Positions 5,570 to 58,538 of a stretch of 64,000 bases of DNA are shown in pieces. The stretch covers positions 1,488,001 through 1,552,000 of the forward strand of contig NW_026250405.1 of NCBI RefSeq assembly GCF_024521635.1, given 5' to 3'. A program made the position numbers and the translations under genes. This DNA is from Tricharina praecox. Lineage: Eukaryota. Under the pieces are notes generated by a model that ran no database searches, was not told the origin of the DNA, and saw nothing but the letters and a program-made list of their open reading frames with translations. Each line of letters opens with the position of its first letter. Position 1 is the first letter of the stretch.

Positions 5570-6621
5570 GGAGGAATATGGGGACGAACGGCACGTTAGG
5601 GTTTTATGTTTTGCTTGAGGGAGTTTTGCAATGCGTTTCGGTTTTTTAGTAGTATCTTCAGCTTGATAATGAGATGTGTAGTAATGTGGAAGTTGTACAT
5701 CTACATCCATGAGTGGCAAGCGTATCGAGATGCGTTCTGGAAAGAGCTAGGGTTCATTATTTGTCACTCGTTGTTGGAAGGCGAGGTGTCTGTCGTGTAG
5801 GTACCTGCATAATTGGAGTTGTCGCAGTTAGCGATGATGGTAATATAGTATAGTGTCTTCGGCCCACCAGAACAGGCTGCGTGGTATGTAATAGTCCTGG
5901 GAGGAATTCGGGCACCAAAGAGCGTGGTCGGCTCAAATTTCAATTGATGCAGTCCGAACGGACTAGGTACCTACCTATTCCCCTTCCAAGCTCCAAGGAC
6001 GAGAAAGTGACGAACCACAAGCCGCGTACGGAAATATGGCAAACGTTCTTGAATGTACTCTCGCAAGCGCGCAGATGTATTGTATGGCGAGTGGAATCTA
6101 ACCCAGCCCAGACCTTGGACCACCTTGCCCGCCATAGCGAGTGGAAACGTCCAGGTAGCATCGAATGGCGCAATAGTTTCTTCCGAGCCATTGAGATGGA
6201 TGCCAATAACGGGTGATCTGGCCTCCACCAGCGCCGTCGGTTTCCCGTCATAGTTACCAAACGCCTAGGTACTTCATACATATCACTCGTGGATTGGCTC
6301 CAGACAAGATGACGCCGTGCCCGCACAGCCGCTCATCAGCCACTGGAAGCGGATCTGTCCTGATGGTAAAGATGTAGCCACGGTTGGCGAAGGCTCCAAG
6401 ATCGCCTCCAGCACCGTCCTCGCGGCCCGTGCTGAAGCTTCGACCAGACCCAGGGGCCAGCACACCCAACGGTATCACAGCCATACATCGAGGAAACACC
6501 GTTTGGTGAAAACCATTGCCCATACGTGGGGCCACTTCTCGTTTCGTCTTCACAGCCAGTAGCAGCGCAAAAAAGCGTGTCACGTGAAGTTACTGAGTGA
6601 TATCTAGTGCTCCGCCCGTCT

Positions 6622-6787
6622 TGCCAAAAACAAAAACAAAAACAAAAACCGTCACCACCCCCGGCGGGTGGCTTGGAAACCCCAAGAGCTGAACATAAAG
6701 TTCTTTTACCCGGGCTTGAACTGGGAACTTCGACTCAACTCCCCTCGCCGATTGCATGGCCTATCAAACCACTAGACCACACGGGGG
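6622..6787 (-). ncRNA. tRNA-derived Pol III-type unit (SINE-like head, hairpin and T-tract); not a functional tRNA
   Basis: Minus strand: A box TGGTCTAGTGG (6779-6769) within a D-arm-like stem GTCTA/TAGGC. T-arm/B box CCCAG-TTCAAGC-CCGGG (about 6725-6709). Then GGTTTCCAAGCCACCC-GCCGG-GGGTGG (hairpin) and (TTTTTG)4. The 3' acceptor strand and a clear anticodon arm are missing. Confidence 0.6.
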
Positions 6788-7031
6788 TTTTTCCGTGACA
6801 GAAGAAGCATTCCGCACTTTGTAAACTGGTAATGATGGATAATAGACGAGGTTTCGCGCTGGTGCTCGGTAGAGCACACGGCTACTCCGTGCCTTCCCGG
6901 ATAATGCAATAATAGGTGGCTGTATTTTCCACCATCTTGTCTTATATAAATGCCGTTTCTATGACGGTGCTAATTGCGCTAATATTTTTTGGTTCTATCA
7001 TCCATTGCGTGCGACCTTACTAGACTATGGC
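6622..7031 (-). mobile_element. Composite repeat, copy 1: LINE 3' tail + ~200-bp body + tRNA-like head
   Basis: The reverse complement aligns with 29001-29354. Identical blocks: 34 nt (6890-6923 = 29119-29152), 29 nt (6788-6816 = 29223-29251) and 16 nt (6666-6681 = 29316-29331). Confidence 0.8.
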
Positions 7032-7310
7032 GACCACCAACTTCCCGGCCTTTCCTGCCAGTTCCACGGGGTCTAGAGAGAAAGCTCTACCACCACGGTC
7101 CATTGCTGCGCCGTTGCCTACCAACCAATTTTACAAAGGAAAACATGATCCCACTCATTGTCCACACCGTCCGCAAACGAAATACCCTGTCGGGCACTCC
7201 TGTTCGGCTCCAGAGGCGTCGCTCTCCTCCTCGGCGCCGGTTGGCTACTGGGTGAGAGAGAGAGATCTTCCTGTTTTATTTCGCATGCAACCTATCTAGA
7301 CAATGGCGAA
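7032..7310 (-). mobile_element. Degenerate LINE 3' fragments
   Basis: 7280-7310 TTCGCATGCAACCTATCTAGACAATGGCGAA matches the LINE tail at 7571-7600 (ATTGCGTGCGACCTATCTAGATCATGGCAA). About 7200-7240 translates on minus as GAEEESDASGAE, resembling the LINE's EADEEDTASEASE. Confidence 0.5.
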
Positions 7311-7551
7311 TTGGCTACTGAGTGTGTGAGCGCTAAGTTCTAACTTGCTGCAAAGACCGAGTGACTTGACACATAAGCAATCTTCGCTGCTAACGACGAT
7401 CACCGGTTCGCTTCAGCTGCCCAAACCACCGATTTCAGCACGTTCTGTAGGCTAGGCACCTTAGGTGTGTACCAAAGCCACTGGAAACCCAAGTATGTGC
7501 GACGGACGGCAAGTATGCAACCGCAATATGTATGTTTGAAATCCAAGTCCT

Positions 7552-8982
7552 TTTTTTTGTTCATTCATTGATTGCGTGCGACCTATCTAGATCATGGCAA
7601 TATCATCTACACATGCCCCCCCGTGCACCCCCCCCCCCCGTTTCTACGCCACTGTCTAGCCTAACTATCGTCAGGCGGCCCGATGTGGCTTCCCCTGCCC
7701 TCCGCCCCGGCCGTTCCCAAAGATATGTCTCCGCCGTTCGCACTCGCCCCCGCACCCACACCCGTACTCGACCCCGCCCCCGCCCCCGCGCCCTCGAGTC
7801 GTCCCACCTCCACAGCAACTTTCTAGTCTGCTACTCTGCGCCGCTGAGCTCCTCAGCTTCGGCACCCTCCTCCTCCTCCTCCTCCTCCTCGAGTCGCCTC
7901 AGCTCCGCTCTCTCTTCCCGCTCCCTGAGCTCCCACTCGGATGCCTCACTTGCTGTATCTTCCTCATCGGCTTCTGGCATTCGTCTGTCCATATCGGTGG
8001 TGGAGAGGAACTCTAGAATGGCCTTGCTGCATCGCTCGTCTGCGAAGAGGTCCCGGAGTTTGAAGCGGTCTTTGCCCCTCCTTGTCTGCTTCCGGTCTTC
8101 TGCCCAGAGAGTCTTTTGCTGACTTTTCCATTCAGCGCAATTTTTGAAGAGGTGCTCCCGAGTCTGTGTCTTGTAGCGGCACCAGCCGCAGCGGGCATCC
8201 GGGCGGCTCTTGGTCCACTGTAGGTACTGGCCGGTGAGGCAGTGTCCTGCCTTGAGTTGGTAGAATCTCGAGGCGAGGCGCTTGGGGGCCATCTCCGGAT
8301 TTGGGTCAGGACGCTGGCCGGATTTCCGACTGTTCCGGTACTTCTTATGAGTGATTCGGTTGTCCGCCCATCCCTTGGCTTCTCTCCACTTGGCTTCGGA
8401 GATGCCGCGTTTCAGGTAGGCGAGCGATGGCGGTGGCAGAGGCCGGGTGCCATACTGGTGCAGGTAGCGGGTCCCTTCCACCCCACGGGCGGTGGGGTTG
8501 TCAGCTGCCAGCTTAGCCCATTCATCCGCCTTCTCGTTCCCAGGAACATCCTTGTGTGCCGGGCACCATCTGATCTCAATGGTGATCGCAGGTTCCCTTT
8601 GCCGGAGAGTGGCACTGTGTTTCCGTGCCTGGAGGGCATACTTTTGGCCGGGGCCAGGTTCATCGTGAATCATCCTCCTGATAGTAGCTTGTGCGTCGGT
8701 GTAGATAGTAGCTCTTCTAAGACATAGCGTCGGTTGGCGGCTGCTTTGAGTGCTCGAGCGATTGCTGCACATTCCGCGTCATAGGCCTCCTGTTGGAAGC
8801 CCATATGGACTTTGTGTCCCTTCCATTCGTCGCCGGAGCGCCAGACGACAGCGAAGCCGGCCGCTTTCGAGTCTGTCCGAGATCCGTCTGTGTACATAGA
8901 GAGTCCTGGGGGTTGTGGGCCCAACGTGTGCGCTTTCGCTGCGACTGCCTCGTCCACGGTGACTGTGAAATCAAGTGCTTGG
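7552..8982 (-). mobile_element. 5'-truncated non-LTR retrotransposon (Tad-like LINE: RNase H + CCHC zinc finger) with poly(A) tail and 18-bp TSD
   Basis: RNase H catalytic motifs YTDGS, AYDAECAAI, IYTDAQA and WCPAHKDVPGNEKADEWAK, plus CGWC..HLFKNC. One frameshift near 8718 splits ORFs 8670-8957 and 7831-8772. T-run at 7551-7558. Direct repeat GTTTGAAATCCAAGTCCT at 7534-7551 and 8983-9000. Confidence 0.92.
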
Positions 8983-11900
8983 GTTTGAAATCCAAGTCCT
9001 GGAAAAAGTTGCTGGCGGTGCTATAACCAACGAGTGAGATGTGATGCTATGATGCTCAATAATGTGTTATCAGTCAGTTTTTCGAGCGAGCCCCGTCTCC
9101 AGATTTTCTATCCTGTGTTTGCCCTGACTGAACCCGTGCTATGAACTTGTGAAGAAGCGAGCAACCCCCAATCTCCAGCCTGTACTTCAAGCAACTTACA
9201 TGCCATGTCGATTTTTGTTTTTTTCCTGACTTTGTGCATGTACCCTTCGCACATACCCACGGTATATACCGCAGCCTGCAGGACAGGGCGGGTAGGGCTG
9301 GCAAATCGAAGACTCTTAGGAGTTTCCATCCACGTGCCACAAGGCCCGCCGATCGTGATGTCACGCAGGCTCCGGCGCTCTGCCCGTTGAAGCGGTGACA
9401 CAAGTCACACGACGCCACGGAGGAGGAATGGCAGGTGCAGGCGTGCAAATGGTTTCTCCGCGGAGCGATCAGGTCTCGAGAGGTCTCAGGAAATGAGGTC
9501 CGGAGTCAACACCGACCCTCTACGATATCCGTTTTTTCTTTCTTTCTTTTTTCCTTTTTCTTTCCTTTTCTGCGGTCCGTGGGATGCCGTGGATCTTGCC
9601 GCTGGAAGCTACGATACTCTAATACATACATGCCTCGGCCCAGATGGCTTTGTAAGCTGCGTAAGGCTGGCCCTACAACAACCGGTGCCGCACTACCGGG
9701 GGGCTGGCGACTGGGAAAAGTGACACTTGTATGGAGGGGGGCCCTTCGCGACGGTTGATTTACGCAGGGCTGACTGACTCGCATGTGCTTTTTGGCGCGC
9801 GTACATCGGTGGCGTGAGAGGAAGGCTGGCTGCCTGTTTGACGACAACCGAAACGGTTGTTGGGTCCACACTGCTACATACCATGTTACACCTGCACGCA
9901 GCACAGGCATGATCGCAAGACCTTGTTATGACATGTGCAGAAGAACTCATGGTAGAGTCCCTATGTACCCGGATGATTGGATGCCCAATCCGGGCTGGTC
10001 GTCGTATGTAGAGTAAATAGTTGCTAGATATGGAGCTAGACAGTCAGACGTCACCGGTTCGTGCTCTGACCACGGAAGGTTTCTTAAACTGGACTACGTG
10101 GGGGCCAGCTACGGTCTATGCATGCCTACTCCAGCAAACGCATTTACTTACTTCAGTCGTTTCGTGATTGGCTGATATTCTGCCATCCGTGGACTACCTG
10201 CTCTGGATAGAAGTGACCGCACTGCCACTCGAGCGAGCTCTCGCACCCAAAATTAAGCCGCTGTACTTACATATTTCCCAATGCCACCATATCTCCCCAC
10301 CCTACCGGGCTCCATCTCTCCAGAATCTAGCTCCATCACACCTTCCACAACGCTTCTCTGTCGCCTTATTGCCACGCTACTCCCAGACAAGTCCCGATTT
10401 GTCTATCCATCTTCCCCGGCCTGGCCAGAGCTTCTTGGAAAAGGCGCTACCTAAACCACCAGGCACCTAACTGACGAGCTACTCAAGCGCGCAGACCCGA
10501 TCGAGTACTAGTGCTAGTAGTTTCGTCCTTCTCCCACGACGAACAAACATCCGAGATGCATCCGACAGGACGAGACCCCCATCTCCACACGAACTATAGT
10601 AGTTAGAGTTAGGACCTGCCCTACAAGGCAAATCCATCCAGGTCCCAACCATGATCACGGAATCTCGCTCGGTATTCGCTCCGTCCTTTACCTAATGCCC
10701 AGCCCGGGTATTTACCGGTAATCAAACCAGGTGCATCCGTCTGTGGCCCATCCTACTCTAGAATCCACGCCTCCGCCGGTCCGCGTCCGTACGTACATAG
10801 CCGAAGGAAAAACGGCCGGAAAAACGGATTATCCGCATGCTCGGGGACGAGGAGGAGGAAATGCACCTATGGTAGGTACCTACATATGCGGGTTCGAACA
10901 TTCCTTCCTTCCTTCCTACAAGAGCCCCTACCTACCTATCATAGCAGAATAGAGTAGGTACCTACCGTAGTCTCGATATCCGCGACGTACTTACTAGTAG
11001 TTCCATGTCCGTCCCGAGCAAGCAGAAATCGACATATGTAACCACTACCTAGTTACCTAGTTACCTAGTACTCCACTCTATGCGGGACGAACGTTAAGCC
11101 CACCACCTTCGCATCTCCTATCATTTCCCCGGATGCGAAATCACATCCATAACTGCACCAAAAGAATCCTCCGAACACCCCCCGCGATGGAATGGTTAGT
11201 TACTTGATAGAGTGGTGCTCTAGCAAACAATTCCCCGGAGCACCGGATGTCGAGTCGGGAGGTCCGTGCGCGTGTATGCAGAGTATTGGCGGTCTCGTGG
11301 CCACGCGCCCGCTTCATGTACTACCGGTATAGCCGCCTCACTCCCAGTGGCCACGGCTACTCTACTAAACAGACCACTACCGAGTATCATGTACTCTATG
11401 TAGAGTACATCGCCGGCCAGATCTCTCGACATATCAGATCTATGTATCCAATCCATCATGCCACTGCCACTTGCCACTGCCACTCACTGTCACATTCCGG
11501 TCGATTTCCGTCGCATCGAAGGTGGACGCGAGTGATGGGTGCGCGCGCGGCCCCAAACAACGTACCTACTCCATGTTACGTATGTTACGTACGTAACGTA
11601 AGAACATCCATCCGCCCCCAAACCCTCCCCGAACCCCGAAGGGCGAACCCCTGGCCTTCGCCCTCGCCATCGCCCTACCCGAACGGCCGTCGTCGGGATC
11701 GCCGATATTACGTCGCACAAGTTTGGCGAGCTAAGTAGGGTACTCTACACCTTAGCTATGAAACTACAGCTCGCACGCACGTTTCCTCAGCCCAACCCCA
11801 CCCTACAGGCTACAGGCTACAGGCTACATGCCATCCACCAGAGTCGGCGCCGGATACCTATCGAGGCTATCGATGTGGATTGGACGCTGGATGTAATTCG

Positions 11901-19700: not shown

Positions 19701-22252
19701 CCATGGCCATGCCACGCCGAAAGGGTCTTGGATGGCGGGAATCCCCGTGAGAGATGGATTATGGATATGTAGGGTTGGTTGGTCGGTCTGGTCAAGCCTC
19801 GGCGGACATGGCTGAGACATGAAGTTACATACCTGTGTATGTACATACTCATAGAGTGTGTGCATACCAGCCTACATACCTTTCCACATACCTACATACA
19901 TACGGGCGACGGCGAAATAAAAATCAGGGGAAGCGGTGGGCGGGCTCCCAATTGCTTCATGGACGATGGGAGGGTTGCACGATCTGACAAGCGTCTATGT
20001 ACGAAGCGGTGCGTCACCCCATCATACATATCATACCTACATATTTCGAAGGACAGCGGTTTGATCAAGCCCGCAGCAGCGCATGGCTGGAGTCAGTCAG
20101 TCAGTCAGTGGTAGAGTTCGGCCAAGGACATACCCGATTCCACCGCCTGGGCTGAGTGAAGAGTATGTATCTACATAGTAGTCCGTATGACGAGTTTCGC
20201 GAGCGGAGTAGGTGGGTAAAGTAGGTGACTGTTACCTAGGAGAGGGCTTCGCGAAACACTGGAGCATGGTTGGATTTCATGCAGCAGTGTCTACTACTAC
20301 ATAACTAGTACGGTGTTTGTGAGGAATGGAGCGGACGGGGGATGCGGGGCGGCCAAGGCTTCAGCTTCAGCGAGACACCTCCCCCTCCATCCCCGTCCCC
20401 TCCCCTTCCTCCGCCCCCCCTTCCTCCAGGGTGAGCTGGAGGGCTTCCGTCGATCAGTATCACGCGCGAACCGAGCTCGCAGCCCTGTCGTGAACCCCTC
20501 CTTCGTTCGTGCCTTCTCGAGCTGACCTGGAGGGGAGGGGAGACGTGGAGGGGGGGCGGGGGGAAGGAATCAGGTCAAGTGCTCACTGTCTTCTGCTCAC
20601 TGCTCACCAATTGAACCACAATCCGGCCAGGTTTTATTTATCCCCACACCTGCGAACTGGGTATGTATAAGGGGAGGGGAGGCGGCGGTAAGCCAAGAGA
20701 GCTGATGGCGGTGAATCGGCCTAACAAGTGTCTCTCGCCTGTAAGTACCTGAGATGTTACGTTGGATGCAGCGCAGGCTGCCCACATTCCGTGTTTGCGA
20801 TGGTGGTGGTGGCCTCCTCACAGGGCGGTAATAATAGCCAACAGATATGCCGCTGATGTCTCGTAAGGCTGAAGGGCTGGTTCCGGACGCAGCTGATATG
20901 AGACCGCTGATGCCCGAAACGAAGGACGCGAGTGGGGGTCGGGCGAGGGAGGGAGGGTGAGATCGAGCGAGCGAGGGAAGGAAGGAGTGTTCGTCATCAA
21001 TCTGGCAGAGGAGTATATATTTTTGCGAATCGTTCTTCAGACTTCCAGAGCAGCATAACTAACGATGACGACGAGGGGCTCGCGCGGTTCGTCCATCGAC
21101 GCACGGGCAGCCATAGCCATGGCCATCGTCACGGCCATACCGGTTCTCGGTACTTTTCCGTCGGTCCAGAATGCGGGGGCGCAAAATCAGCCAAAGAGAG
21201 CAGTCGGGTAGATTAAAGGAAATGCGGGCGAGTGGGTTGGCTGGTTGGTTATTCGCGGAAAGGCCCGTCCAGCCCAGCAGTGTTCGATTGCGAAACGGCA
21301 GCCCCATCGAAATCGTCACCGCACCTGTGCATCCTCACCGTCCTCGCCGCCGCCAGAGAGCTAACCACGATGGTCTCTAGACTCTCCGGTAGCTGTGCCC
21401 ACTGCTCAGTACCCAGTGCCCAGTGCCCAGTGCGAACTGCGAACTGTGAACTGCGAACTACGAACTGCCCACTGCCCATACCTATCGGTACATACCATAC
21501 ACCGATACTTTTAGAACATTATTGCACCGTACGTGGTCGGCTTATTCGACGCCCTGCGAAAGTGCGCTTTTTCACCCCAACTGGAACTCTATGGATACTA
21601 AACAGCCTTGTAGGGCAAGTGTCATCCACCATAAAATCCTGCATGGGATAGTGTGCTTGGCGGCATGAGCTGGTGATCCACCAGCGGTAGCCCCTACATG
21701 GAAGATACACGACCGACCAACCCAACCCCAGTCATCACACCCCACAGCCCTCCCGCCTGCCGTACCCCTCCGTACCCCTTCTTCGCGCAGAGTACTTAGT
21801 TTTGTTCGATTTCTCTTCTTCCCTCTGACGAGCCACACACCCTTCCTCGCGTGCTCGTCTGCCTGCCTGCTGTCTCCATCCGGTTCTTGCCCCCGATCTT
21901 TTTTTCTTGAACGCGTCGGTCCTTCTCCCGCGCGGCCCCACTCTACCCGCCAACCCGCCAACCCCCCCCCTGGAGCAGCCGTCTCTCCCAGTGGCCTGAT
22001 CCCGCGATACCCGATAACCGCTGCGCGCCCGTGTCGCCGCCCCCTCCCGCAGCCACAGCAGAGCCCCTCGTCGCGCGCATCCCAACCGTGAGTACCGGTC
22101 CGAACATCAAAATCCCTAATTGCGAAATCCCCCCCTCCCCCCCCCCCCCCCACCCCGCAGCCAAACCCCACCACGCTCACGCGCATACACACACTCACAC
22201 ACTTACACTCACACCCACTCACACTCACACCTCCCAGGCCAACAACAGCATA

Positions 22253-23557: not shown

Positions 23558-24589
23558 CACGAGGCTTCACCTCTGATGATACCTACTAGCCCTGAATGAT
23601 CGGCCCTGAAGATGAAGGTTCAGGTTCTTGCTCGCGAAAGTTTGTAGACGAGCATACGCTTAAACGATTGTTAAACCGCGCATGCGCATACACATACTCT
23701 ACTACCTATCCGCATACTCTACTACTCTATACGCACACGCATACGCAATGCATAAGTATGATTTTCACGGCACCGAATCGAGCTGGCGTGCAACCGGTAC
23801 ATACTACTACATACAGCCCCTCCAAACCGCACAAACAGCAGTCGTCAGAGCTGAGGAAACGTGCCCAACGTGAACGTCAGCTCGAAATAAAGTGCACTTC
23901 CCCCCTCGTTCCCGATCCGAAGTCCCGAACAGCTCCTTGGGGCACCTATTCCAGGCTGTCTGCAGCCCACGGTTAGAACTTAGAAGCCCGCACGGCCGGC
24001 GCACGAATCCCCCGGACCAGGACAGAGGTGTGTACATCAGCAAGCAAGTGTATGTACCAGTGTGTATGTACCATAAGCCCCGAGTCTTGAGTCTTGACTC
24101 ACGTACTGCACTGTACGTTACTGTACTGTACATACCCCCCAGGGCCCAATTGCGGATCTCGGTAGGCATATGTAGGTAAGCATGTACGGCCTTACCTAGC
24201 ATAAGGTTCTTACCACCTGACATTGACCCGCCCCGCTTCAACTTTCAACACGTCCATCTATATCTACATATGTATGGTATGTATGGTATCTACCGGTTCT
24301 GTCTCAAGTTTCAACGTTGGCCTGTCCGCTGCAGGAATAGAAATAGGTACCGATATTTCCATCTTGCAGACTTGCAGTCGCCTTGGAAACATACCCCAGG
24401 TTGGGTCAGCTCGCTGCGTACAAAGTACGTCCTGGAGGTGTGTTTTGTTTTTGTTTTTGTGTTTTGTTTTTGGATTTCCCCGTGGTCGATGCCTGCCAGC
24501 TGGGCTGGCTGGCTGCTGGCTGGATGGCCGCGATGTTTTGCTTTGTAACTGGAGTGCATACCTACTTTTTTACCTATCTATCCATCCAT

Positions 24590-24834
24590 CCACCGCTGAA
24601 CCCACCGCTGAACCCACTGCTGAACCCACTGCTGAACCCACTGCTGAACCCACTGCTGAACCCACTGCTGAACCCACTGCTGAACCCACTGCTGAACCCA
24701 CTGCTGAACCCACTGCTGAACCCACTGCTGAACCCACTGCTGAACCCACTGCTGAACCCACTGCTGAACCCACTGCTGAACCCACTGCTGAACCCACTGC
24801 TGAACCCACTGCTGAACCCACCGCTGAACCCACT
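24590..24834. repeat. 12-bp minisatellite (CCACTGCTGAAC), about 20.4 copies
   Basis: Directly visible. Units 1, 2 and 20 are the variant CCACCGCTGAAC; the rest are identical. Confidence 0.97.
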
Positions 24835-27800
24835 ACATGCCGTACGTAAACCCCACTCGCATGTGGCGGGGGTACATAGGGTAGAGTACATACGTGAGAG
24901 GTACCCGTAAGTATCTGCCGGACGATATTCTTAGGCAGTGTACATACATTGCATTGTACTGTACATTGTACTGTACATCCTTCCTAGGTGCAACTGTGCA
25001 ACTGTGCAGGTGTGGCGTGGTATTTGGCGTGGTGTTGAATAATACTGTCGGGGGTGCGACGGGTTAAAGGTTTCATGTTGATGCCAGTCAGTCAGCCAGT
25101 GATCAGCCAGCCATGGAGCCGGCGGTGCATCGTCTGACGGAGGGAGGGAGGGAGGGCTGGGAGACATTTACAGAGGTAGAGACGTGTATTCCGAGGAGGA
25201 GGAGGTGGTGGAGGATGAGCAGGAGGTGGAGGATGAGCAGGAGGAGCAACGTCACTGCAGCTGGCCAGCTGAAAGACACCCAGGATTGGAACATACGTCG
25301 GCGGCGTGCTCGATTCTGCAGGAGGAGGGCGCCTGCGTAAGGGCTGCAAAAAGGGCTGCATCGCCGTCCCGGCTAATACTCTAGAGTACTACATATAGAG
25401 AGGCATGTAACTTATGTAGGTAGCCTGTTGGAACTTGCACTGGCTCAGGCGGTTGACGTTGCCAAGACGCTGGCCCAGCTGGTGGCATGTTCCGGGTTGC
25501 TGCAGGTGTCGACTCCTACATACATGTCTGGGTATAAGAGTGAACCTCTGTATGTACCGGTAGTTAGTGTACTGTGCTGTACTGTGCTGTACCGTATTGT
25601 CCTTGTCCTGTACCCAGTCCCAGCCCCAGCTCGCACACAGTACACACATTCCCGGTCCTACTCTACTCAGTACTCTACGCAGCCTTACCATCACAACCAC
25701 AGCCCTATCCCGAGATGGAACTACATAATACCCATCCACTATATATCCACTCCCACCGCCCCCCTCCCTGGTCGCACTCGGCATCCGATGCACTGCTGTG
25801 GATTCCACGCCCCATCCCCCCCGGCCATCCCCCTGGCACCTGCTGGACCGACCGACCGACCGCCGGATATATCCAGAGTACCTAATACCCATGGTGGTAG
25901 GTAGTTATGTATCTCATTCCATAGTGCTCTCTGCATGTGGGGAGGGGGGGTTCAAGTTGGATATCATCATATGCACCTACGATTCTCACCGCTGCATAGG
26001 TAGCGGCACAAATAGATTAAAGTCCGCAGCATATGTAGGTACTTGGAAGTATCTATGTAGGGTCTTCGCTTTCTCGGCTAACCAACTTTGCTGCTGTTCA
26101 GCTCGAGTTTGTACATTCGTGACGGTTGGCACATACATACATACGATACGATACGATGCGTCACCGCTTCCGGTCACTGTCTCTCTCTCTCTCGCTCCCC
26201 GGTCTGTGGCCACCGCATGGAATCGAGGCTGTGGGGGCTGCAGAGGCTGCGGGGTTGCTGGTGCGAAGTCCAGTACTCGCATCCGAATCGCCATCTGCGT
26301 CCTGCGAGGCCCAATAAAAACCACTGGAGTGGGTGGTTAGCGCGGCAATTGCGCGACTCCGGTGTGCGAAAGCGCGCGGCGACTGCGGCGCCGGCGGCCG
26401 TAACGGCAATTAAGGTGTGGTCTGTGCGCGAGATCCGGTGGTCGGCCTACATACAGTATATACATACATTATACGGTCGTCTTCATCGGAGGAGGAGCAC
26501 GGAGGAGTATGACGGAGGAGCACGAAGGAGCACGTGAATATACATAAATCAATCCGCTGCGCCGACGCCGACAGATCGTCCCCGTCCCCGTCCGCGGAGG
26601 TGTCCCCGCAGTGCATGAGTGCATGGGAAGCGATATTCATAATGGGGGTTCCTCTGATCCGTGAGTGGGGCTTCCCGTCGTATACCCACCTACATACGCC
26701 TACGCTAACAGCCCTACTTCCACGGACTCTGTCGTGTCGGGATTCGTCCTCGGGATTTCGGGATCTCGGGTTGAAGTGGCTCGGCGACCGTCCGATCCTC
26801 TTCGCTCCTCACTCACAGAGGGAAGTTGTGGACTGACAAGTTACAAGTTACCACAGTGCAGGGAGTGAAGATCGCAATACCGGTATTCCCCCCGGGGATC
26901 AACATCAATGATCAACAAGTCGCGCCACGAAAGACGATGGATGGATAGGAGACCGCCGGACGGAATAACACCCCCTCTATACATAGCACGGAAAGCGCCA
27001 TTTCTTTGAAACATAAACGTCGCGCCGCCATCTCATCCCGTGGGTGGAACGCCACGGCGCATAGGTAGCTAAAGGCAGTGCTCCCGAAGGAAGGAAGGAA
27101 GCTATGGCAATGGCGGTAACTGTCCCCTATGTACCTAGGGTAACAACGCTGCCCTGATACATATCAGGTGGAACCAAAACCGGCCAACGGCCCCGCCCGC
27201 CCGCTTACTGTACATACTCGTACATACATACCCGGGAGTCCGAGAAAGCGCTGCCAAGTCGCCGAAATCAGAACCGCAAGGTGAGAGCTTCCCATCCTTG
27301 ATAACTAACAGCTATCCCCAGCCCCCCCGTCCAGCCTCGGTCCTATGTCTGCGGCTTTTAGTAAATGTGATGGGTAGCATCATCCCCCGGCCTATAAGAC
27401 TCATGTTATAGACACACAACTCACATTAGTAGAGTATTCCAGCACCAACCTAGACTCCTGCACCTGTCTTGCGGGGCGAAATGCAACGGCGAGCAGGAGT
27501 GAGTGAGTGAGTGAGTGATATCCCGTGCATGTGTCTACCTATATTAGCGCCCCCTATGTATGATATCATGATTGAGCCCTGCAACGGCCACAACTATCTA
27601 TACATAGATACTCCGATTAGATCTACATACAGACAGACAAGCCGGCTGCCGTAGTTACTCCGCATAGGGATTCCTGAATCCCGATAGCCAACCGAGAATG
27701 GAACAATCCCGAAATAAGACCGACGACCCAAGTTGTCGCCGTGGCCCATCGCCGCAACGGTCCGCCTACATACATACATACATACAGGCGTCGATCAAAA

Positions 27801-29000
27801 CGGCTGCGCGGGGCTCGAGAATTTACCTGCAGAAGCAACGAGGTGGACGTCCTGCGCGCTCTGCGCGCCCGTTGCCATCACGGCCGGAAACGGTTCTCAT
27901 GGTTGGTCACTCGGCCGCAATTCGCGGATCATTAACTGCTCCAGCAGGCCTGCCGGCGCGCGCGCCAATTCATGCGTCGAACTCGACGTATGGGGGCGAT
28001 ATGCGACCCGCCGAAGCAATAGAAGAAGAGGGAGGCAGAAACGGAAACAGTCCATGCGGTTGCGGTTGCTATGCGTATCAGCCCTATGCGGCGGCGGTCG
28101 GTCGCTCGTCTAGCTGCTGCAACCTGCTGCAGCCTGCGGCTGTGTACTCTACTTTATGTAAGGTGCGCGGGCAACGACGTTGCGCTGGATATATGTAGGG
28201 CTAGCCTTACCCCCCCCCCCCCCCCCCCCCCCGCTACGCAGATGCCGCGGCAAGACAAAACGCCGGAACGCGGAACGCGGAATTGACGGATCCCACTCCG
28301 CTCCAGCGGGCGGCAGTCCGACGCACAGGAAAAACAGGGAAAACAAGAAAAAAGCACACACACCGGTAGGTGCTTAGGTGCTCCCCCGCAGATCGGTGCA
28401 AACTCCACTCTTCACGAATCCGGCCAGAACCGGCCCAATCCCCGGAGAAAGAAAATAACTGCCGAACCGCCCCCTCCCACATAACTGGCACAACTGGCAC
28501 CACGATCGGCAACACGACCCGCAACACGATCGGCAGGGGCGGCAGTGGCGGCATCGTGAAACGCAGGATGTGGTGGACGGACGGACGGGCGGACGAGCGG
28601 ACGGACGCTACGTTCACTACCCGTCCGTCTGCGGCCGGGCGGGGCAGCATCGGCATCTGTTGTGGCGCAAAAACCAAAAAATACCTGTACGGGTGGCATG
28701 CGAGTGCCGACTCGGATAGGTAGGGTACTCTATCCGCTCGGTGCTTAGAGCGTCGAGGGCATTCAGGGCTACCCCCATTCTCACGCGAGGACGCAGAGTC
28801 GGCACGGAGTAGAAATAAGCCAGTGCGGGCCGGCTCGCCTGTTGTAGCCCCCAGCTCCGGCCCTCCGGGATCGGGTGGTGAGTGATACGGTAGGACTCCA
28901 TCACTTCGTCCTCATGCGCGAAGTGGGGGGCAAATTTTCCGGCCGTGTGAGTAGATGGGTGTCGGGTTGGACGATAGACAAGGGAACGGTGTGTGTATAT

Positions 29001-29354
29001 TTGCCATGATCCAGATAAGGTCGCACGCAATGAATGATGGAACAAGAAAAATTGCAGCGCAGTTAGCACCTTCATAAAAGCGGCATTTATATAGAAGAAG
29101 GTGGTGAAAAATACAGCCACAGCCACCTATTATTGCATTATCCGGGAAGGCAAAGAGTAGCCGTGTGCTCTGTAGAGCACCATTGCGGCGCCTTGTCTGT
29201 TACCCGTCAACAGTTTATAAGATGCGGAATGCTTCTTCTGTCACGGAAAAAAAACTCGCGTGGCCGAGTGTTCGCGCACCCGGCGGAGGGAACCTGAACA
29301 CCAGTTCGGGTCCCAGGTTTCCAAGCCACCCAATAGGGGGGTGAAGGTTTTTGC
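29001..29354 (+). mobile_element. Composite repeat, copy 2: LINE tail + body + degenerate tRNA-like head
   Basis: LINE tail TTGCCATGATCCAGATAAGGTCGCACGCAATGAATGA, the shared body, an A8 run and an A-box-like TGGCCGAGTG (29261-29270). Ends GGTTTCCAAGCCACCC..GGGTG..GGTTTTTG. Inverted relative to 6622-7031. Confidence 0.8.
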
Positions 29355-29439
29355 CAAAAGTTCAAACCCCACCTCATTACGAACTTTTTTTTTGCTGGAG
29401 TCTAGCACGCCATATCACTCGCCATACGAGTGATCCCAA

Positions 29440-29700
29440 ATGATGCAGGAATTTTACATCGCAATTACACGGAAGCACATCGCCATCCTCATCCTCCGCT
29501 GGGGGGGACCCGAGATCACCATCGAGATCAGATCATACCTGGAACACTGCAAAGACGTTCTCAGAAACGAGAATGCCAACGAATGGGCCAAGTTGGCAAC
29601 CGACAACCCCGCCGCCGCTCGCGAAGTGGAGGGCCCCCGCTACCTACCTGGACCTGTACGGCGCCAGGCCGCACCATGGTCAGATTCACGAGAGAGCTAG
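29440..29700 (+). mobile_element. Degenerate LINE RNase H fragment, same family as 7552-8982
   Basis: PEITIEIRSYLEHCKDVLRNENANEWAKLATDNPAAAREVEGPRYL compared with PAITIEIRWCPAHKDVPGNEKADEWAKLAADNPTARGVEGTRYL. Confidence 0.85.
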
Positions 29701-40297: not shown

Positions 40298-41904
40298 ATG
40301 TTGACGCTCAAGGGGATGTCGGTCAAGACGGTTCGGAATAGACTGCCGCCACTGCGGGCCGTAGCGAGCATTTTTTCGAGGACGAGGTTCTGGTTTTTGG
40401 TGTTTCTGTCGGCGTTCATCGTCATATTATGGCGAGGCGTGAATTCCTCGGCTGCGAATATGCAAAAGTGAGTACATGCCTTCCCCCTTACTCCTTGCGT
40501 GGGTTGGCTGTATTGTGGTCCGTGGTCCGTGGTTCGTGGTATCGGAGCATTGGATCTAAGGGGGTTGTTTGTGGGGCGGGTGGAATGCGGTAATGGGGGG
40601 GACACGGAGACAGCTTTCAAACCCCCCCCCCCCCCCCCCCCCCCAACATGAAGCTGGACCCAACACGAGACACAAGAAGCCAAGTGCTAACGATCTGCTC
40701 CCCCGCCTACCAAGATATTACTGCTTCGGACCCGCAAAGTCACCACTAGAGATCTCACAGAACGAGCACGCAAAATGGCACATGCATCACCAGACACCGG
40801 TACTGTTCAACCACCACAAGCCGATCGAGGTCAATGCGAGCACGATCCAGTACATCGACCTGAACAAAGTCTCGTCCACCACCGACGCCATCAAGAACAA
40901 GGAGCGGATTCTGATACTCACCCCCCTCCGCGACGCCGCATACTACCTGCCCAAGCACTTCGAGCTCGTTGCGCAGCTGACGTACCCCCACGAACTCATC
41001 GACCTTGCGTTTTTGGTCTCTGACTCCACCGATGATACCCTCGCCGTTCTCGCCGCGGAGTTGGACCGCGTCCAGAACCAGCCCGATCCGAAGCTCGGCG
41101 GCCCATTTCATAGTGTCACCATCGTGCAAAAGGATTATGGCGTCGCCGAGAGTCAGGATGTTACCGTGCGGCACTCGTTCGAATTCCAAGGCCCCCGGAG
41201 AAAGGCTATGGGCATGGCCAGGAACTTCTTGCTCAGTGCCACGCTGACAGCGGAGCACTCGTGGGTGTACTGGAGAGATGTGGATATCGTCGAGAACCCC
41301 AAGAGCATCATCGAGGACTTCATCAAGCACGACAAGGATATTCTCGTCCCGAGTAAGCCCCACATCCCATCATTTCCTCCCTCACTCCCCCGCTGACCAG
41401 CGAAAAGACATCTGGTTCCACCGTTATGAGGGCAACCACGACATTGAGGGCCGCTTCGACTACAACTCGTGGCAGGAGTCTCCCGAGGCTCTCAAGCTTG
41501 CAGCCAGCCTTCCCAAGGACACTGTTCTCGCCGAAGGCTACGCACAGTACGATACCAAGCGCAAGCACATGGCCATGATGGGAAGCCGCGGCGATAACCC
41601 CGACGAGGAGATTGAGCTCGATGGTATCGGAGGTGTCAACATCCTCGTCAAAGCGGATGTCCATCGTGCCGGTACTGCCACCCCCTCCTCCCTCTCCTCC
41701 CCCAATTCGTCACCACTATGATAACTGACTGTACCCGCAGGCATCAACTTCCCCTGTTACGCCTTTGAGAATCAGGCGGAAACTGAGGGCTTCGCAAAGA
41801 TGGCCAAGCGTGCGGGCTACCAGGTCATCGGTCTGCCTAACTATGTCGTGTGGCACCTCGACACGGACGAGAAGCCCGGCAACCTTAAGGGCAGACCTGC
41901 ATAG
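40298..41904 (+). CDS. ANP1: GT62 mannan polymerase subunit (Anp1), 4 exons
   Basis: N-terminal TM segment, then YYCFGP, ERILILTPLRDA, LTYPHELIDLAFLVSDS, RRKAMGMARNFLL, VYWRDVD, RFDYNSWQES, LDGIGGVNILVKADVHR and FPCYAFENQAETEGFAKMAKRAG. Confidence 0.92.
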
Positions 41905-54497: not shown

Positions 54498-56786
54498 GGG
54501 TGCTGTAGTACGGTATAGTAGGCTAGGTATAGTACTTTCAGCTGCGAGAGTTGCTCGTGCGGGGCGATGGTGTGGGAAGACGCGACGAGGGGTGAGGGGA
54601 GCGTTGTCATAAGCAGAGTAGCTGTGGTGGGGCAGCGAGAGGAGGCGCGGGCGGGGCAGAAGGGAAACACAAACGAAACGGAAACATCACTCGCTCGCCT
54701 CCTCGCCCCCTGTGCCCTGCTCCTGAGCCCTCCACCCCGAGGCTCCCGTGCTTCAGGTGTGTGTCATCCGTGCGTGTGCGCGTGTGTGTGTGTGTGTGTG
54801 TGTGTGTGGGCGTGTGTGGCAGCTATGAATGATGACCTATCATCAATGCATATACTCGAGTAGTAATCGAATGCTACAGTGTGATATGATGTTTAAACAA
54901 ATAAATCCGTGCGTACTCTACTTGTGGAGGGGGGGAGGGAGGGCAGCGGGCACGCGTGCGACCAATCGCGCTGCCCGCTTCACACTGCTGCTGCCCGCCG
55001 TCGCAGCTGCCCGCTCCACGCTCCTCGGCGGTCCGCAGACAGGCTGGTAGGCTGGCAGCAGTCTGCGGGAGCGTTTTGTTGTAACTTGAAAAAGATTGCT
55101 ACTTATGTAGATATTATACACATGCTCAGATACATATACGAGTAGTTATCACGACGACAACGACTCCGGAGTAGGTAGCAGAGTAACAGAGAGCTCGGGA
55201 TCCGGCATCAGCAGCAGGGTGGGGGATTCGATACGATACGATGCGATTACAAACGACTCGGTTACCCTTTCTCTATCGTTCTCGCTTTCCTTCTCTCACG
55301 GCGGCCACTCACGGCGGCCCACTGACTCTGCTCTGCTAGCAGGTACATGAGCACATGAGATCCCAAGATCGACGAGAAATCGACGCGAAATCGGCGAGCG
55401 ATGGATGGACGCGATGAGTGGATGGCGATGTCTGAAGTGTTGTCACGACTCATGTAGCACCAGCATCAGCGCCGGCAGACGTTCCGGGGGAAGGGGGAGG
55501 GGGGGGGATGGGGGTTTGAGATGACGACTGCCCAGCAGCAGGTAGGTAGTGCACAATGCACATGCTACCTCAAAATATGTACACATGTACACGGAAAGAT
55601 CATCTACGATCTGGAACGCACAACTTGTAGGTAGCTTGCAGTCGCAGCAGTTGCAGTCGCAGTCGCATCACAGAGCAGAGGTAGCAGAGGTAGCAGAGGA
55701 TGATTCGGCGAGCTGGCGGTCATGGCCGAGCTCTCGAGTCTCGTCCACTCTTGCCCGCTCGTGTCTCGTAGGCTGCTTCTCTCATGTCTCGTCTCCTTGA
55801 ATTTTTTGCATGAGCTGAGCATGTGAGAGGTGTGTTTCCATGTTCCCATGTAGAGGGGGGGACGGGGGGACAGACGGCTTTATGCTTCAATTGAATTTGC
55901 CTTTGCCAGCTGTGGGACCACTCACCACCGACCACTGCCCACCAACCACAGACGCGTCGGGCCGTCCGAGGCTCGCTCGCTCGCTCGTTCGCGGGTTAGA
56001 CGGATTTGTAGATATGTCGCGAGCGAGCGAGCGGGAGAGAAGGGAGTCAACGAGAAGGGAGGGAGTCAACGGAATTGCGATCCGTGAGATAGGTAATTCA
56101 TATGAGTACCTGAACACTCTACTTCCTATGCATACTAGTACCTACTCTAGATACAGCTCATCCTCCCTCTAGCTAAGCAGAGCTCGGTGGTTTCGATTTG
56201 GAAGCCACTCGCGCCCGCCGCGCTCGCCCAACGCCGCAAAGCACCGCGCCGAATCGAAAGTGGAACTTCGAATTTCGAATTTGAATGGTTAGGTTGGGTT
56301 AGGTTAGGTAGGGGGGTGTGTCTGTGTCTGTGTGGGTGTGTGTGGATGTGTGGATGTGGATGTGTGTGGGTGCGTGGGTGGGTGCGTGGGTGGGTGCCGA
56401 ACGGAACGGGATCAGGTTTATTGGCGAGCCAAGGATTGCTCAGATGCTCAGATCAAGCAATTGCAAGTGTGCAAGTGAGTACTCTGCGGCAGGGGGGTGC
56501 GGAGAGTGCGTGCTCAGAGTGGAGAAAAAAGGCAAGAAGGGAGGAAGGATGGGAAAGGGAACGAAAAGGAAGAAGAAGAAGGGAAAGAAGAAGAAAGAGA
56601 CACAGACACACGATCGAGGTCGGCGGACGGAACGGCGCTCGGGGAGGGAAATGGGTGCCCGGCGGCATGTGGGTTGGTAATTGGGGTTCTCAAGTTGAAA
56701 CTTGAAACGTCGGCCGCCCGTGGAGGAGTTTGGTGCAGATATGGGGGTGCGTGTTTGGGAGTGGGGAGGAAATAATGGCTTTGATG

Positions 56787-56871
56787 GTGAGGAATGGCTG
56801 GCTTCGTTGTGAGGAATGGCTGGCTTCGTTGTGAGGAATGGCTGGCTTCGTTGTGAGGAATGGCTGGCTTC
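56787..56871. repeat. 22-bp tandem repeat GTGAGGAATGGCTGGCTTCGTT, about 3.9 copies
   Basis: Directly visible; the copies are perfect. Confidence 0.95.
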
Positions 56872-58538
56872 CATCATCCGGACAGCGAGACGACGACGAG
56901 ACGGCGACGAGAAAGAGACAGAGTCCTGTTTGCGCTCAATTGCTATTCCAGAGCCACGATTGTCACGCTCGGGGTTTGAGGAAGCTCCGGAGTGTGCCAG
57001 CAGCCGCCCGCGTCCACTGCGATGGCGCACTGCAAAGAGGTGGTGCCGACTAGTTCCTGTGTGTGTGCTCGTCTGTCTTTGCGCACAAATTCAATGGTCC
57101 GGCCCCATGCATGCCATGCCATGCCATGCCATGCCATGCCATGCCGGCCATGATGCTACTCTGCTTTGCTTTACCGCCGCCGCCCTCGCTGATGGATGGA
57201 TGGATGGCGATGTTTCTTAGCGATGGCAACTGTGGTGCCCCTGTCCTGGCCGCCGCCGCTGCTGCTGTGCTGCTGCTGAGTTCCGGCGAGTCAGGAACAA
57301 CCCCACACACACACCTCGACGCGTGTTTCTTGCCTCTCGCCTCTCTCGTCCGCACTGGGGGGGTGGGGGGATCGATGACGATGACGGCCACCACCACGTC
57401 TGTAACCAAGTATCTGGGGTGTGCTATCTCTCCATCTCTGTCCGCTCCGTCTGCTCCGTCTGCTCCGTCTGCTCCGTCTGCTCTGTCCGCTCTGGCCACT
57501 AGCATCATGCCTCACTCCTCCACTCTGTCCCCCGTCCGTGGCTCGGTCGGTCGGTTGGTTGGTCTTGGCTGGTCCTCCCCTTTCCCAGTGCCCACACGAA
57601 GAAGCCGTCCGTGGCTCAATCTGGTAGATATCTCCAGACTAGGCGTTGTCTGTCCCGCCGTGCCCGACCCAGGCCCTTCCCTCCAAATTATTGCTCCTTG
57701 CCAATGAAATGGCAGCTTGATAAGGTCCGAGCCACACCTCTTTCCGCGTGCTGTTCTCGCGTCTCGTGTGGATCCGCTGCGCTGCAGAGCAGAGTCGCAG
57801 AAGACTTCATAGAAAGAAAGAAAAAACAAAAAAAAGAAAGAAAGAAAGAGAAAAAAAAGACGTGAAGCATCATTGAAAACCGCACACCCCTGCCCAGCAA
57901 ATCTAACGGGCAGAGTGCTTTCCGCAATCGAGCATGGTGTCGATATCTTTCTTGGATACTCTAGCCACTCTGCTCTTCCGCCGCTGGGAAAAAACCAACC
58001 GACCGACCAGTAAAGGCACCGTTCCTGCCCCTTTCCCACCCCCCCCCCCCCCCCGGAAACTAAACACAATCCACAACCCCCCGACCCTGAAGTCCTATCC
58101 TACTGCCACACGACCCTCCACTCACACTCCCACCCCCGACCTAAATATCCCTTCACTCTCGGTTTTCCCGTCCTTTCCCTTTCTGAGCCCAATCGCCACA
58201 CACCCTAACGCTCCCGCTAGCTCCCAATCCGATCGCGCGCATCTCTCCCAACCGACCGCCTTTTGAACGTCCGTCCGCCTCCTTCTCTCTTCTACTTCTC
58301 TTCTGCTCCTCTTTCCCTCTTCCTCTTCCTCTTCTCTCTTCAGTCTCTCGTTGATCATCTCACCCGCTTAACTTGCCAACCTTCTCCTCCTCCTCCTCCT
58401 CCTCCCAACATCTCTCCACCTACACCTCTCCAACACACACCTCGAGAGTAAACACGTCGGCCTCACCTCGCCAACCCCCCTTGCATCACTCATACACCTC
58501 TTGTAATTAATCCGGCTCGAAAACTACACACAATCACA

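Follow-up and report, generated by a model that had tools for sequence, protein, structure and literature searches.

Fungal short interspersed elements (SINEs) derived from transfer RNA (tRNA), such as Mg-SINE and AfuSINE, carry a 3′ tail derived from a long interspersed element (LINE). A unit that seems to have this order turned around is found in a stretch of 64,000 nucleotides from Tricharina praecox (RefSeq assembly GCF_024521635.1, contig NW_026250405.1, positions 1,488,001 to 1,552,000 of the forward strand), which is called the window throughout and within which all positions are given. The unit is present there in two inverted copies, A and B, in which a LINE tail comes first, a body of ~200 bp follows and a tRNA-like head comes last, and an earlier note on this DNA had read them as a propagating ‘reversed SINE’. 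The reading tentatively preferred here, at somewhat less than even confidence, is that the ‘unit’ consists of separately evolving retro-sequences stacked head to tail in a LINE-rich stretch, directly upstream of a tRNA-derived module of RNA polymerase III (Pol III) type.

The likeness to tRNA-derived SINEs lies in a multi-copy tRNA-related segment with A- and B-box-like motifs that is found together with the tail motif of a partner LINE. Unlike in such SINEs, the tRNA-like part of the window copies is not at the 5′ end (across the family, the conserved unit reaches 45-165 nt upstream of the boxes, with few exceptions), the LINE tail is upstream and not 3′, and a terminator of five to six T residues directly follows the window heads; neither a LINE-derived 3′ tail with poly(A), nor target-site duplications, nor many copies of the whole unit were found for the window copies. 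A second point of reference is given by Dictyostelium TRE5 and yeast Ty3, retrotransposons that accumulate in front of Pol III genes. The locus would resemble them in its same-orientation retroelement ends stacked upstream of a Pol III-type unit, the nearest abutting the predicted start; it differs in that ARAGORN reports no tRNA gene in the window and that related loci often have an antisense LINE left of the module, and Pol III targeting by the LINE is a conjecture. With 3′ transduction of the L1 type the locus has in common a LINE 3′ end and an A-run followed by non-LINE sequence, but copies A and B share no LINE sequence beyond its last ~45 nt, the transduced ‘body’ would occur twice only, and a second poly(A) and a target-site duplication were not found at the window copies.

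Template-switch chimeras are described for WEIRD, Mg-SINE and MGL in Magnaporthe and for B2, U6 and L1 in mouse (PMC2104539). As described there for the Magnaporthe chimeras, transcript copies are fused end to end in a fungus, a tRNA-type SINE and a LINE take part and the junctions are defined (PMC2104539); in the window, too, the pieces abut directly and each ends in an A-run, and their origin from separate transcripts appears plausible. The chimeras of that account have the polyadenylated 3′ end of the LINE as their last part and lie between direct repeats of 14-16 bp (PMC2104539), whereas the LINE tail in the window is the 5′-most piece, and neither a 3′-most LINE end with poly(A) nor flanking repeats of that size were found in either copy. 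Helenus and TRIMp3 are non-autonomous retrotransposons with long terminal repeats (LTRs) that contain tRNA-like sequence (PMC10886601). As in the elements described there, degenerate A- and B-box tRNA-like sequence occurs here in a non-SINE repeat, and in loci related to the head direct repeats surround variable internal sequence; in contrast to that description, paired LTRs, a primer-binding site, TG...CA ends and 5-bp duplications were not seen here, and the taxa reported differ (PMC10886601).

Separate histories of tail, body and head

Self-BLASTN of the window returned a sole dispersed repeat pair of at least 60 bases, 6788-7031 against 29251-29003 (81.3% identity over 252 columns), and a repeat finder returned the same two arms. 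In comparison with shuffled controls, the tail motif AGGTCGCACGCAATG, at up to two mismatches, has three matches (7003-7017, 7570-7584 and 29018-29032) where 0.14 are expected, and the 23-mer GCGGAATGCTTCTTCTGTCACGG has two where none is expected; the 16-mer GGTTTCCAAGCCACCC matches the window exactly twice. Both copies follow the order given by the earlier note, namely LINE tail, A-rich joint, body, A-run, tRNA-like segment, GC hairpin and T-tract. Its coordinates hold for copy A (minus strand, 7031→6622), and copy B (plus strand, 29003-29353) starts at 29003 and not 29001, the initial GCCAT being placed at 7031 and 29003, respectively; the 3′ limit had been set too short, as homology between the copies reaches ~30-70 bases beyond it. 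Identity between A and B is 87% over tail and joint, 83% over the body, 89% over the last 45 nt of the body with the A-run, 72% over the aligned letters of the tRNA-like part (with 45 gap columns) and 87% over the 16-mer, hairpin and first T-run. It is 58% 3′ of the T-tract, where a common block ...ATATCACTC... is found (6604-6593 and 29412-29421).

Copy counts outside the window rest on the contigs of four public runs (X1-X4) and on one pattern scan of metagenome contigs. Contigs of the runs were aligned to 6000-9100 at 80% likeness; X1 covers 69% of the words of the stretch, and X2 and X3 are small runs, of RNA only as a guess. Contig depth in X1 is 6.7 in the single-copy flank, 12.8 in the body bin (6832-6935), 180-252 in the head bins and 140-211 over the tail and the sequence upstream of it, and in X2 and X3 head and tail are present and the body has a depth of 0. 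At individual variable positions of the head, 18 contigs of X1 and 12 of X4 carry a letter other than that of the window. Among 31 related loci of the metagenome scan, none contains the body past its last ~45 bases, and none has the LINE tail of the window in front of the module. The modules are thus independent: the body, at about twice the single-copy depth, occurs about twice, tail and head are abundant without it (depths of 140-250 in X1), and the propagating three-module element of the earlier note is not borne out, on grounds that the note itself had named for its refutation.

The tails tell a similar story. Tail A is 83% identical to tail B and 78% identical to the tail of LINE W, a truncated LINE described below, and tail B is 88% identical to that of LINE W; the 100 nt upstream of the tails are 46-49% identical in every pair (46% between A and B). 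Judged by their letters, the tails of A and B appear to be ordinary members of the LINE family, with a different subfamily upstream of each. Because the tails are not specifically related, homology that is specific to A and B starts at the first base of the body, right after two different A-tails. The earlier observation of a fixed tail/body junction below differing upstream sequence stands, and a body with a fixed 5′ end of its own fits it better than the 3′ transduction that had been offered as one explanation. The unrelated upstream sequences, a tail B that is nearer to LINE W than to tail A, and the lack of a second poly(A) or duplication in either copy weigh against transduction from one source LINE.

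The heads of A and B fall in two different old subfamilies, and their bodies and leaders (the leader being the last ~45 nt of the body) are sisters at 83-89% identity. A sister body and leader next to a non-sister head is hard to derive from simple duplication, which bears on a DNA-level origin in which a tail-body-head mosaic of ~460 bp was copied once, inverted, 22 kb away, and then decayed, with one head overwritten by gene conversion. Such an event would account for a body seen in two copies only, for the identical order and junctions of A and B and for the missing target-site duplications and poly(A), and the body mismatches are mostly transitions (17 of 25), as expected for old duplicated fungal DNA. 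On this account, however, the left edge of A-B-specific similarity should not coincide with the end of the LINE A-tail in both copies, the tails should not be merely as alike as unrelated LINE tails below unrelated upstream sequence, and the subfamily-level indels that head B has in common with one of the related loci (L021) demand an extra conversion event. A DNA-level duplication is considered unlikely.

What the earlier note had envisaged, a non-autonomous retroelement or propagating 3′-transduction module that truly starts with the LINE tail, is very unlikely. Transcripts might, for example, start ~45 nt before the LINE poly(A) site and run into a downstream Pol III unit; HeT-A elements reportedly carry along a ‘tag’ of the 3′ end of the upstream element. 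Homology does begin at a fixed GCCAT in both copies, the conserved unit of the related loci also opens at about -165 (relative to the hairpin start) with a motif that resembles the tail (…CCAGGGTCGC…ATGAAC…), and every internal piece closes with an A-run. Against this stand the two-copy body beside independently abundant tails and heads, its absence from all 31 loci, tails that are not sisters, and a 3′ poly(A) and target-site duplication that were not found; in addition, Pol III would terminate in the runs of five to six T residues past the head, and there is no sign of read-through by RNA polymerase II.

For the stack, three layers can be proposed. The first (5′) would be the last ~45 nt and the A-tail of a LINE-tailed element, of a different subfamily upstream in each copy; the second a ~200-bp piece with a fixed 5′ end and an A-run at its end, found at these two places only; and the third a member of a multi-copy, cross-species tRNA-derived family. 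Twice, body and leader would have come to rest directly between the A-tail of a LINE-tailed element and a member of the head family, with a different element and a different member each time, and the ‘reversed’ order would result from A-tailed retro-copies laid upstream of the module and not from a SINE assembled backwards. We infer the stacking mechanism, as well as how the head family itself spreads; stacking could come about (i) by the LINE reverse transcriptase jumping templates end to end or (ii) by several rounds of LINE-mediated insertion, each at the A-run or the Pol III start. A fungal precedent exists in the bipartite and tripartite chimeras made by a LINE, as described in PMC2104539.

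Several points weigh against the stack. The surroundings of the two copies and of the head module yielded neither a target-site duplication nor a terminal poly(A), and known template-jump chimeras, as far as that description goes, carry both (PMC2104539). In copy B the module is followed by a short sense LINE fragment that lacks the LINE 3′ end (29467-29682, plus strand; second half of RNase H, profile positions 231-295, E 2.6e-11), and the 3′ side of this copy is therefore not a simple product of target-primed reverse transcription. The identical three-piece order at two places requires a coupled mechanism, or a common ancestor with later exchange of a head. The A-run of the related loci is part of the repeated unit and not a fresh junction, and it may belong to the predicted fold, its last A residues pairing with TTT; left of the module, these loci often have antisense LINE sequence at varying LINE positions and not a sense LINE tail. 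Motifs and a predicted helix are the grounds for a tRNA derivation; ARAGORN calls no tRNA in the window or in 17 of the loci, and Rfam gives no tRNA match at E≤10 in two window regions or at E≤1 in eight loci. Finally, the depths given above are contig depths, in part of a soil metagenome, and not copy numbers.

A search for target-site duplications with 12-mers (up to one mismatch) found none around copy A, and the matches around copy B bracket no tail-terminated unit. Two pairs of near-repeats of 15-18 nt at copy B were rejected as duplications, since the first (28712/29824) brackets no A-tailed end and the second (28917/29620) is LINE sequence on both sides. A motif search of the window returned no further tail motif downstream of either copy; the tail motif is solely 5′ of the unit and T-runs are 3′ of it. 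More generally, stacked retroelement ends can mimic composite elements, and a useful test for annotation is whether the modules travel together; for the present locus the evidence speaks against a new architecture of non-autonomous retroelement.

The resident LINE and the chain of ends at copy A

That the copies begin with a LINE tail, as the earlier note claimed, is confirmed by LINE W (7551-8982, minus strand), a 5′-truncated element recognised by its open reading frames (ORFs) and by profile matches at 7882-8987, which comprises RNase H, a zf-RVT-like C-terminus and a 3′ untranslated region (UTR). It ends in the same motif, GCCATGATCTAGATAGGTCGCACGCAATCAATGAATGAAC (7598→7559), followed by A8 (7558→7551), and lies between the two arms of a perfect 17-bp target-site duplication (GGACTTGGATTTCAAAC; 8983-8999 on the left and 7534-7550 on the right, minus strand) that has exactly two matches in the window and none in 100 shuffles. 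Its Pfam matches, RNase_H (E 3e-5 and 1.5e-3) and zf-RVT, are below the curated cut-offs. The full-length homolog P0003 (1302 aa) has Exo_endo_phos (APE), RVT_1 and RNase_H domains, all above the Pfam cut-offs, and the only named homolog of the LINE protein is from a Pezizomycete. The resident LINE therefore shows what is expected of a non-LTR retrotransposon: endonuclease, reverse transcriptase and RNase H in the homolog, and A-tail, 5′ truncation and target-site duplication in the window copy. Since LINE W ends in the tail motif in this way, and since P0003 has all three domains, the ‘tail’ of the copies is the 3′ terminus of this retrotransposon, which presumably belongs among the Tad1/I-like elements.

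Between LINE W and copy A, a third, degenerate LINE-tail-like motif was recognised by its sequence (…GCCATTGTCTAGATAGGTTGCATGCGAAATAAAACAGG; 7270-7322, minus strand; 45-48% identical to the other tails in global alignment). It is probably the end of an older element into which LINE W inserted, and the insertions would then be nested. In all four runs, contig depth is by far greatest over the segment 7254-7310 (56 bp), which covers the degenerate motif and a CT repeat; it is 1721 in X1, and both edges of the segment are loose. The cause may be either a short repeat of very high abundance or low-complexity recruitment. Next follows E3, a repeated LINE-tailed element immediately upstream of the body of copy A (6985-7269, minus strand), whose last 41 nt (7031→6991) are the LINE tail of the unit, followed by A6 (6990→6985); X1 depth is 140-210 over 6936-7143, and some contigs join 7043 to 7255. 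Read along the minus strand, the chain of ends is thus LINE W tail and A8 (7551), older tail-like end (~7270), E3 tail and A6 (6985), body and A5 (6788), and head.

Directly after the A-tail of LINE W at 7551, 28 X1 contigs diverge, with low agreement among them. In X2 and X3, the end of the LINE 3′ UTR (7560-7663) and part of the C-terminal region (7872-8079) reach depths of thousands and the rest of the LINE has tens; as the kind of these runs is only guessed, the segments are either highly repeated or abundant as RNA. Very short insertions of the resident LINE are also observed. In one related locus (L001), at about +95 to +125 from the hairpin start, a 17-nt insert consists of the end of the LINE tail and A10 alone, within a 13-nt duplication (CATTATCACTAGA), and is an extreme 5′ truncation by the resident LINE family. 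Short pieces of tail and poly(A) lie directly 3′ of the module in seven related loci. The resident LINE makes tiny, tail-only insertions beside or in existing repeats.

The tRNA-like module and its relatives

When metagenome contigs were scanned for the hairpin motif as a pattern, 34 loci were recovered, 31 of them relatives and three unrelated, each with ±1 kb of context. Copy A matches all 31 relatives, never past 6836, that is over the last ~45 nt of the body, the A-run, head, hairpin and T-tract. The multi-copy segment, also present in many contigs of the four runs, accordingly consists of the ~45-nt leader, A-run, tRNA-like part, hairpin, T-run and a further ~15-60 nt, and, counted from the hairpin start, the core shared by the relatives lies between about -165/-136 and +50/+60. 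More specifically, it reads leader (…CAGTTTATGAACGTCGAATCC…CACGG), A6-8, CCCCCGCGTGGCCTAGTGG…, GGTTCTGGGTTCGACCCAGG, CTCTTGGGGTTTCCAAGCCACCC-loop-GGGTGGTGAAGG, one to four TTTTTG units, and GCYACGGCGTTYACG with more behind. Leader, A-run and head stand together in all but a few related copies. The earlier note's proposal of an undescribed non-autonomous family can be retained for this segment, which is multi-copy, and is to be dropped for the whole composite. The family is common to at least two fungal genomes. The papers searched contain no 14-15-mer from the hairpin or from the tail motif, whichever strand is read, and the word ‘undescribed’ is provisional, Repbase, Dfam and SINEBase lying outside this comparison.

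CCCCCGCGTGGCCTAGTGG is a perfect A-box consensus and GGTTCTGGGTTCGACCCAGG is T-arm/B-box-like. In the predicted fold, a closing helix AAACCC(C)/(G)GGGTTT is followed by CCA; the consensus fold has 26 pairs, with 97% of cells paired. Within one helix, three pairs vary in both partners (four cells against 1.3 in shuffles, a value reached by 11 of 500 shuffles), which weakly suggests modest conservation of the fold at the RNA level. The term ‘tRNA’ is therefore appropriate as far as the A- and B-box-like motifs and the acceptor-like helix are concerned, and not in the sense of a tRNA recognised by ARAGORN or Rfam; nor did Rfam find any known RNA family, tRNA and LINE-borne self-cleaving ribozymes included, in the window regions or eight loci searched. 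On these features we infer a tRNA-derived module of Pol III type, with an A-run before it and a terminator hairpin behind it, that would be transcribed by Pol III.

The head family has two subfamilies, a main one with copy A and a short one, lacking the T arm, with copy B, L021 and L015. Head B has derived states and the missing T arm in common with L021, and head A groups with the main family. In copy A (all minus strand), the two-copy part of the body spans 6837-6984 (83% identical to 29052-29205; about twice single-copy depth in X1, none in X2 and X3), and homology to the multi-copy family starts with the leader (…CAGTTTACAAAGTGCGGAATGCTTCTTCTGTCACGG) and A5 (6792→6788) at 6788-6836, matches of the loci reaching 6836 at most. 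The putative tRNA-derived segment (6682-6787) contains the A-box-like GTGGTCTAGTGG and the T-arm/B-box-like CCCAGTTCAAGCCCGGG and is not called as a tRNA. The conserved end (6625-6681) comprises the 16-mer (6681→6666), the hairpin CCACCC/GGGTGG (6671→6655) and (TTTTTG)4 (6648→6625), and is invariant in 23 of 23 aligned copies, 21 of which are metagenome rows that had been selected by that motif; past the T-tract (6572-6624, …GAGCACTAGATATCACTCAG…) homology to copy B and to the related loci continues.

Sense LINE sequence lies on the right of the module in some related loci, and the antisense LINE fragments on its left represent at least six junction types. In L014, L017, L022 and others the module is part of larger units with direct repeats (periods of ~605 nt in L014 and ~1007 nt in L017). 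The related loci also form a series of internal deletions, all with one fixed edge at the left end of the module, in a tandem or LTR-like arrangement. Tandem units, twin priming and inversion are each conceivable as an origin of what is seen in these loci.

A Helenus-like terminal-repeat retrotransposon in miniature (TRIM), of which the window copies would represent solo LTRs or LTR fragments together with internal sequence next to them, is quite improbable. LTRs of Helenus, which occurs in fungi, are described as containing tRNA-like sequences with A and B boxes (PMC10886601). Consistent with this are the long direct repeats of L017 and L014, where the sequence between repeats differs through deletions and the module is conserved, a purine-rich run just upstream, and a start with TG in several copies. 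On the other hand, neither 5-bp duplications, nor a recognisable primer-binding site, nor a consistent ...CA end were found in the window or related loci, and the leader stands in front of nearly all copies with enough upstream sequence, not of half, as expected for 5′ LTRs. The range given for Helenus in that account, moreover, is Pucciniales and a few Agaricomycetes, not ascomycetes (PMC10886601). The two window copies themselves are not an LTR pair, because they are 22 kb apart and inverted.

The antisense LINE fragments raise a different question, namely whether the module is not tRNA-derived and is simply the reverse strand of a diverged ORF2 segment that links RNase H to the zinc-binding C-terminus, with every ‘copy’ a LINE fragment in reverse. 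Four loci (L004, L007, L010 and L022) are antisense LINE coding sequence at -140 to -199 (…REYYGHFRLKPDK…; E ~1e-7 against the LINE ORF of L001), leftward continuation leads into a QLRTGH-type zinc-binding domain, the length of the module is about that of the missing linker, and the LINE fragments on the left are antisense in at least six junction types. The core (-100 to +60), however, scores z -1.3 to -0.2 against shuffles when aligned to LINE DNA in both orientations, its BLASTX matches have E≥0.1 at inconsistent positions, and fully open frames number eight on the strand read here and four on the opposite strand, out of 22. A protein database search with the antisense ORF gave one short ORF only, on a contig as long as that of L025, and the A- and B-box-like motifs, with tRNA-type spacing, and the acceptor-like helix lie on the strand read here, which leaves little probability for a coding origin. 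Taken as a candidate antisense LINE, the core was thus negative in profile search, BLASTX/TBLASTN, local DNA alignment, open-frame comparison and protein search. Colinear alignments of core and LINE made by eye gave three mutually incompatible mappings and were not relied on.

What remains beside the stacked ends is a conserved tRNA-derived repeat family in an odd, fixed context, with an A-run before it and a terminator hairpin behind. It is a doubtful and speculative idea that the module, made up of A-run, fold with encoded CCA, GC hairpin and T-run, would be a so far undescribed element of Pol III type in fungi that has a function for retroelements. One possibility is that it would serve as a landing pad for a LINE lineage that integrates at its start site, a Pol III-targeting LINE in a filamentous fungus comparable to TRE5 in Dictyostelium. 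Another is that it would act as a tRNA-like signal for processing or priming, where the RNA upstream of an RNase P cut would end in A residues, or reverse transcription would start from the CCA end. In the mitochondrial retroplasmids of Neurospora, reverse transcription is started at a CCA end. If the idea is true, the ‘reversed SINE’ look would be the footprint of a landing-pad or processing/priming mechanism, and the module, as a LINE target or processing signal, would offer a tractable fungal case of coupling between a LINE and a Pol III unit; otherwise, the head family is another SINE- or TRIM-like entry for repeat libraries.

Further features of copy B and of the window

Copy B (plus strand) opens with the LINE tail (29003-29043) and the A-rich joint (29044-29051), and LINE 3′-UTR-like sequence precedes the tail from ~28970. 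Its body, with leader and A8 (29247-29254), spans 29052-29254 as delimited by self-BLASTN and module alignment. The stretch 29255-29353, which groups with L021, holds the short head, which lacks a T arm, and behind it the 16-mer (29316-29331), hairpin and T5. Past the first T-run (29354-29434), a 31-nt insert and T9 (29385-29393) are followed by the ATATCACTCG block, and another small hairpin is placed at 29414-29434 (ATCACTCG-loop-CGAGTGAT). This hairpin is also found 3′ of the T-run in L015 (at about +75 to +95), with a different loop, and is weaker in copy A.

The remainder of the window has ordinary ORFs of eukaryote type and looks like a segment of a fungal chromosome. Intergenic poly-C tracts of ~15-24 C are located at 22126-22171, 28203-28248, 40619-40664 and 58024-58069, one of them ~750 bp upstream of copy B. 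At 24542-24889, ~29 units of 12 bp form a tandem array and are 98% alike in its centre, and a 22-bp tandem repeat (GTGAGGAATGGCTGGCTTCGTT) at 56765-56871 has 4-5 units, the last three of which are identical.

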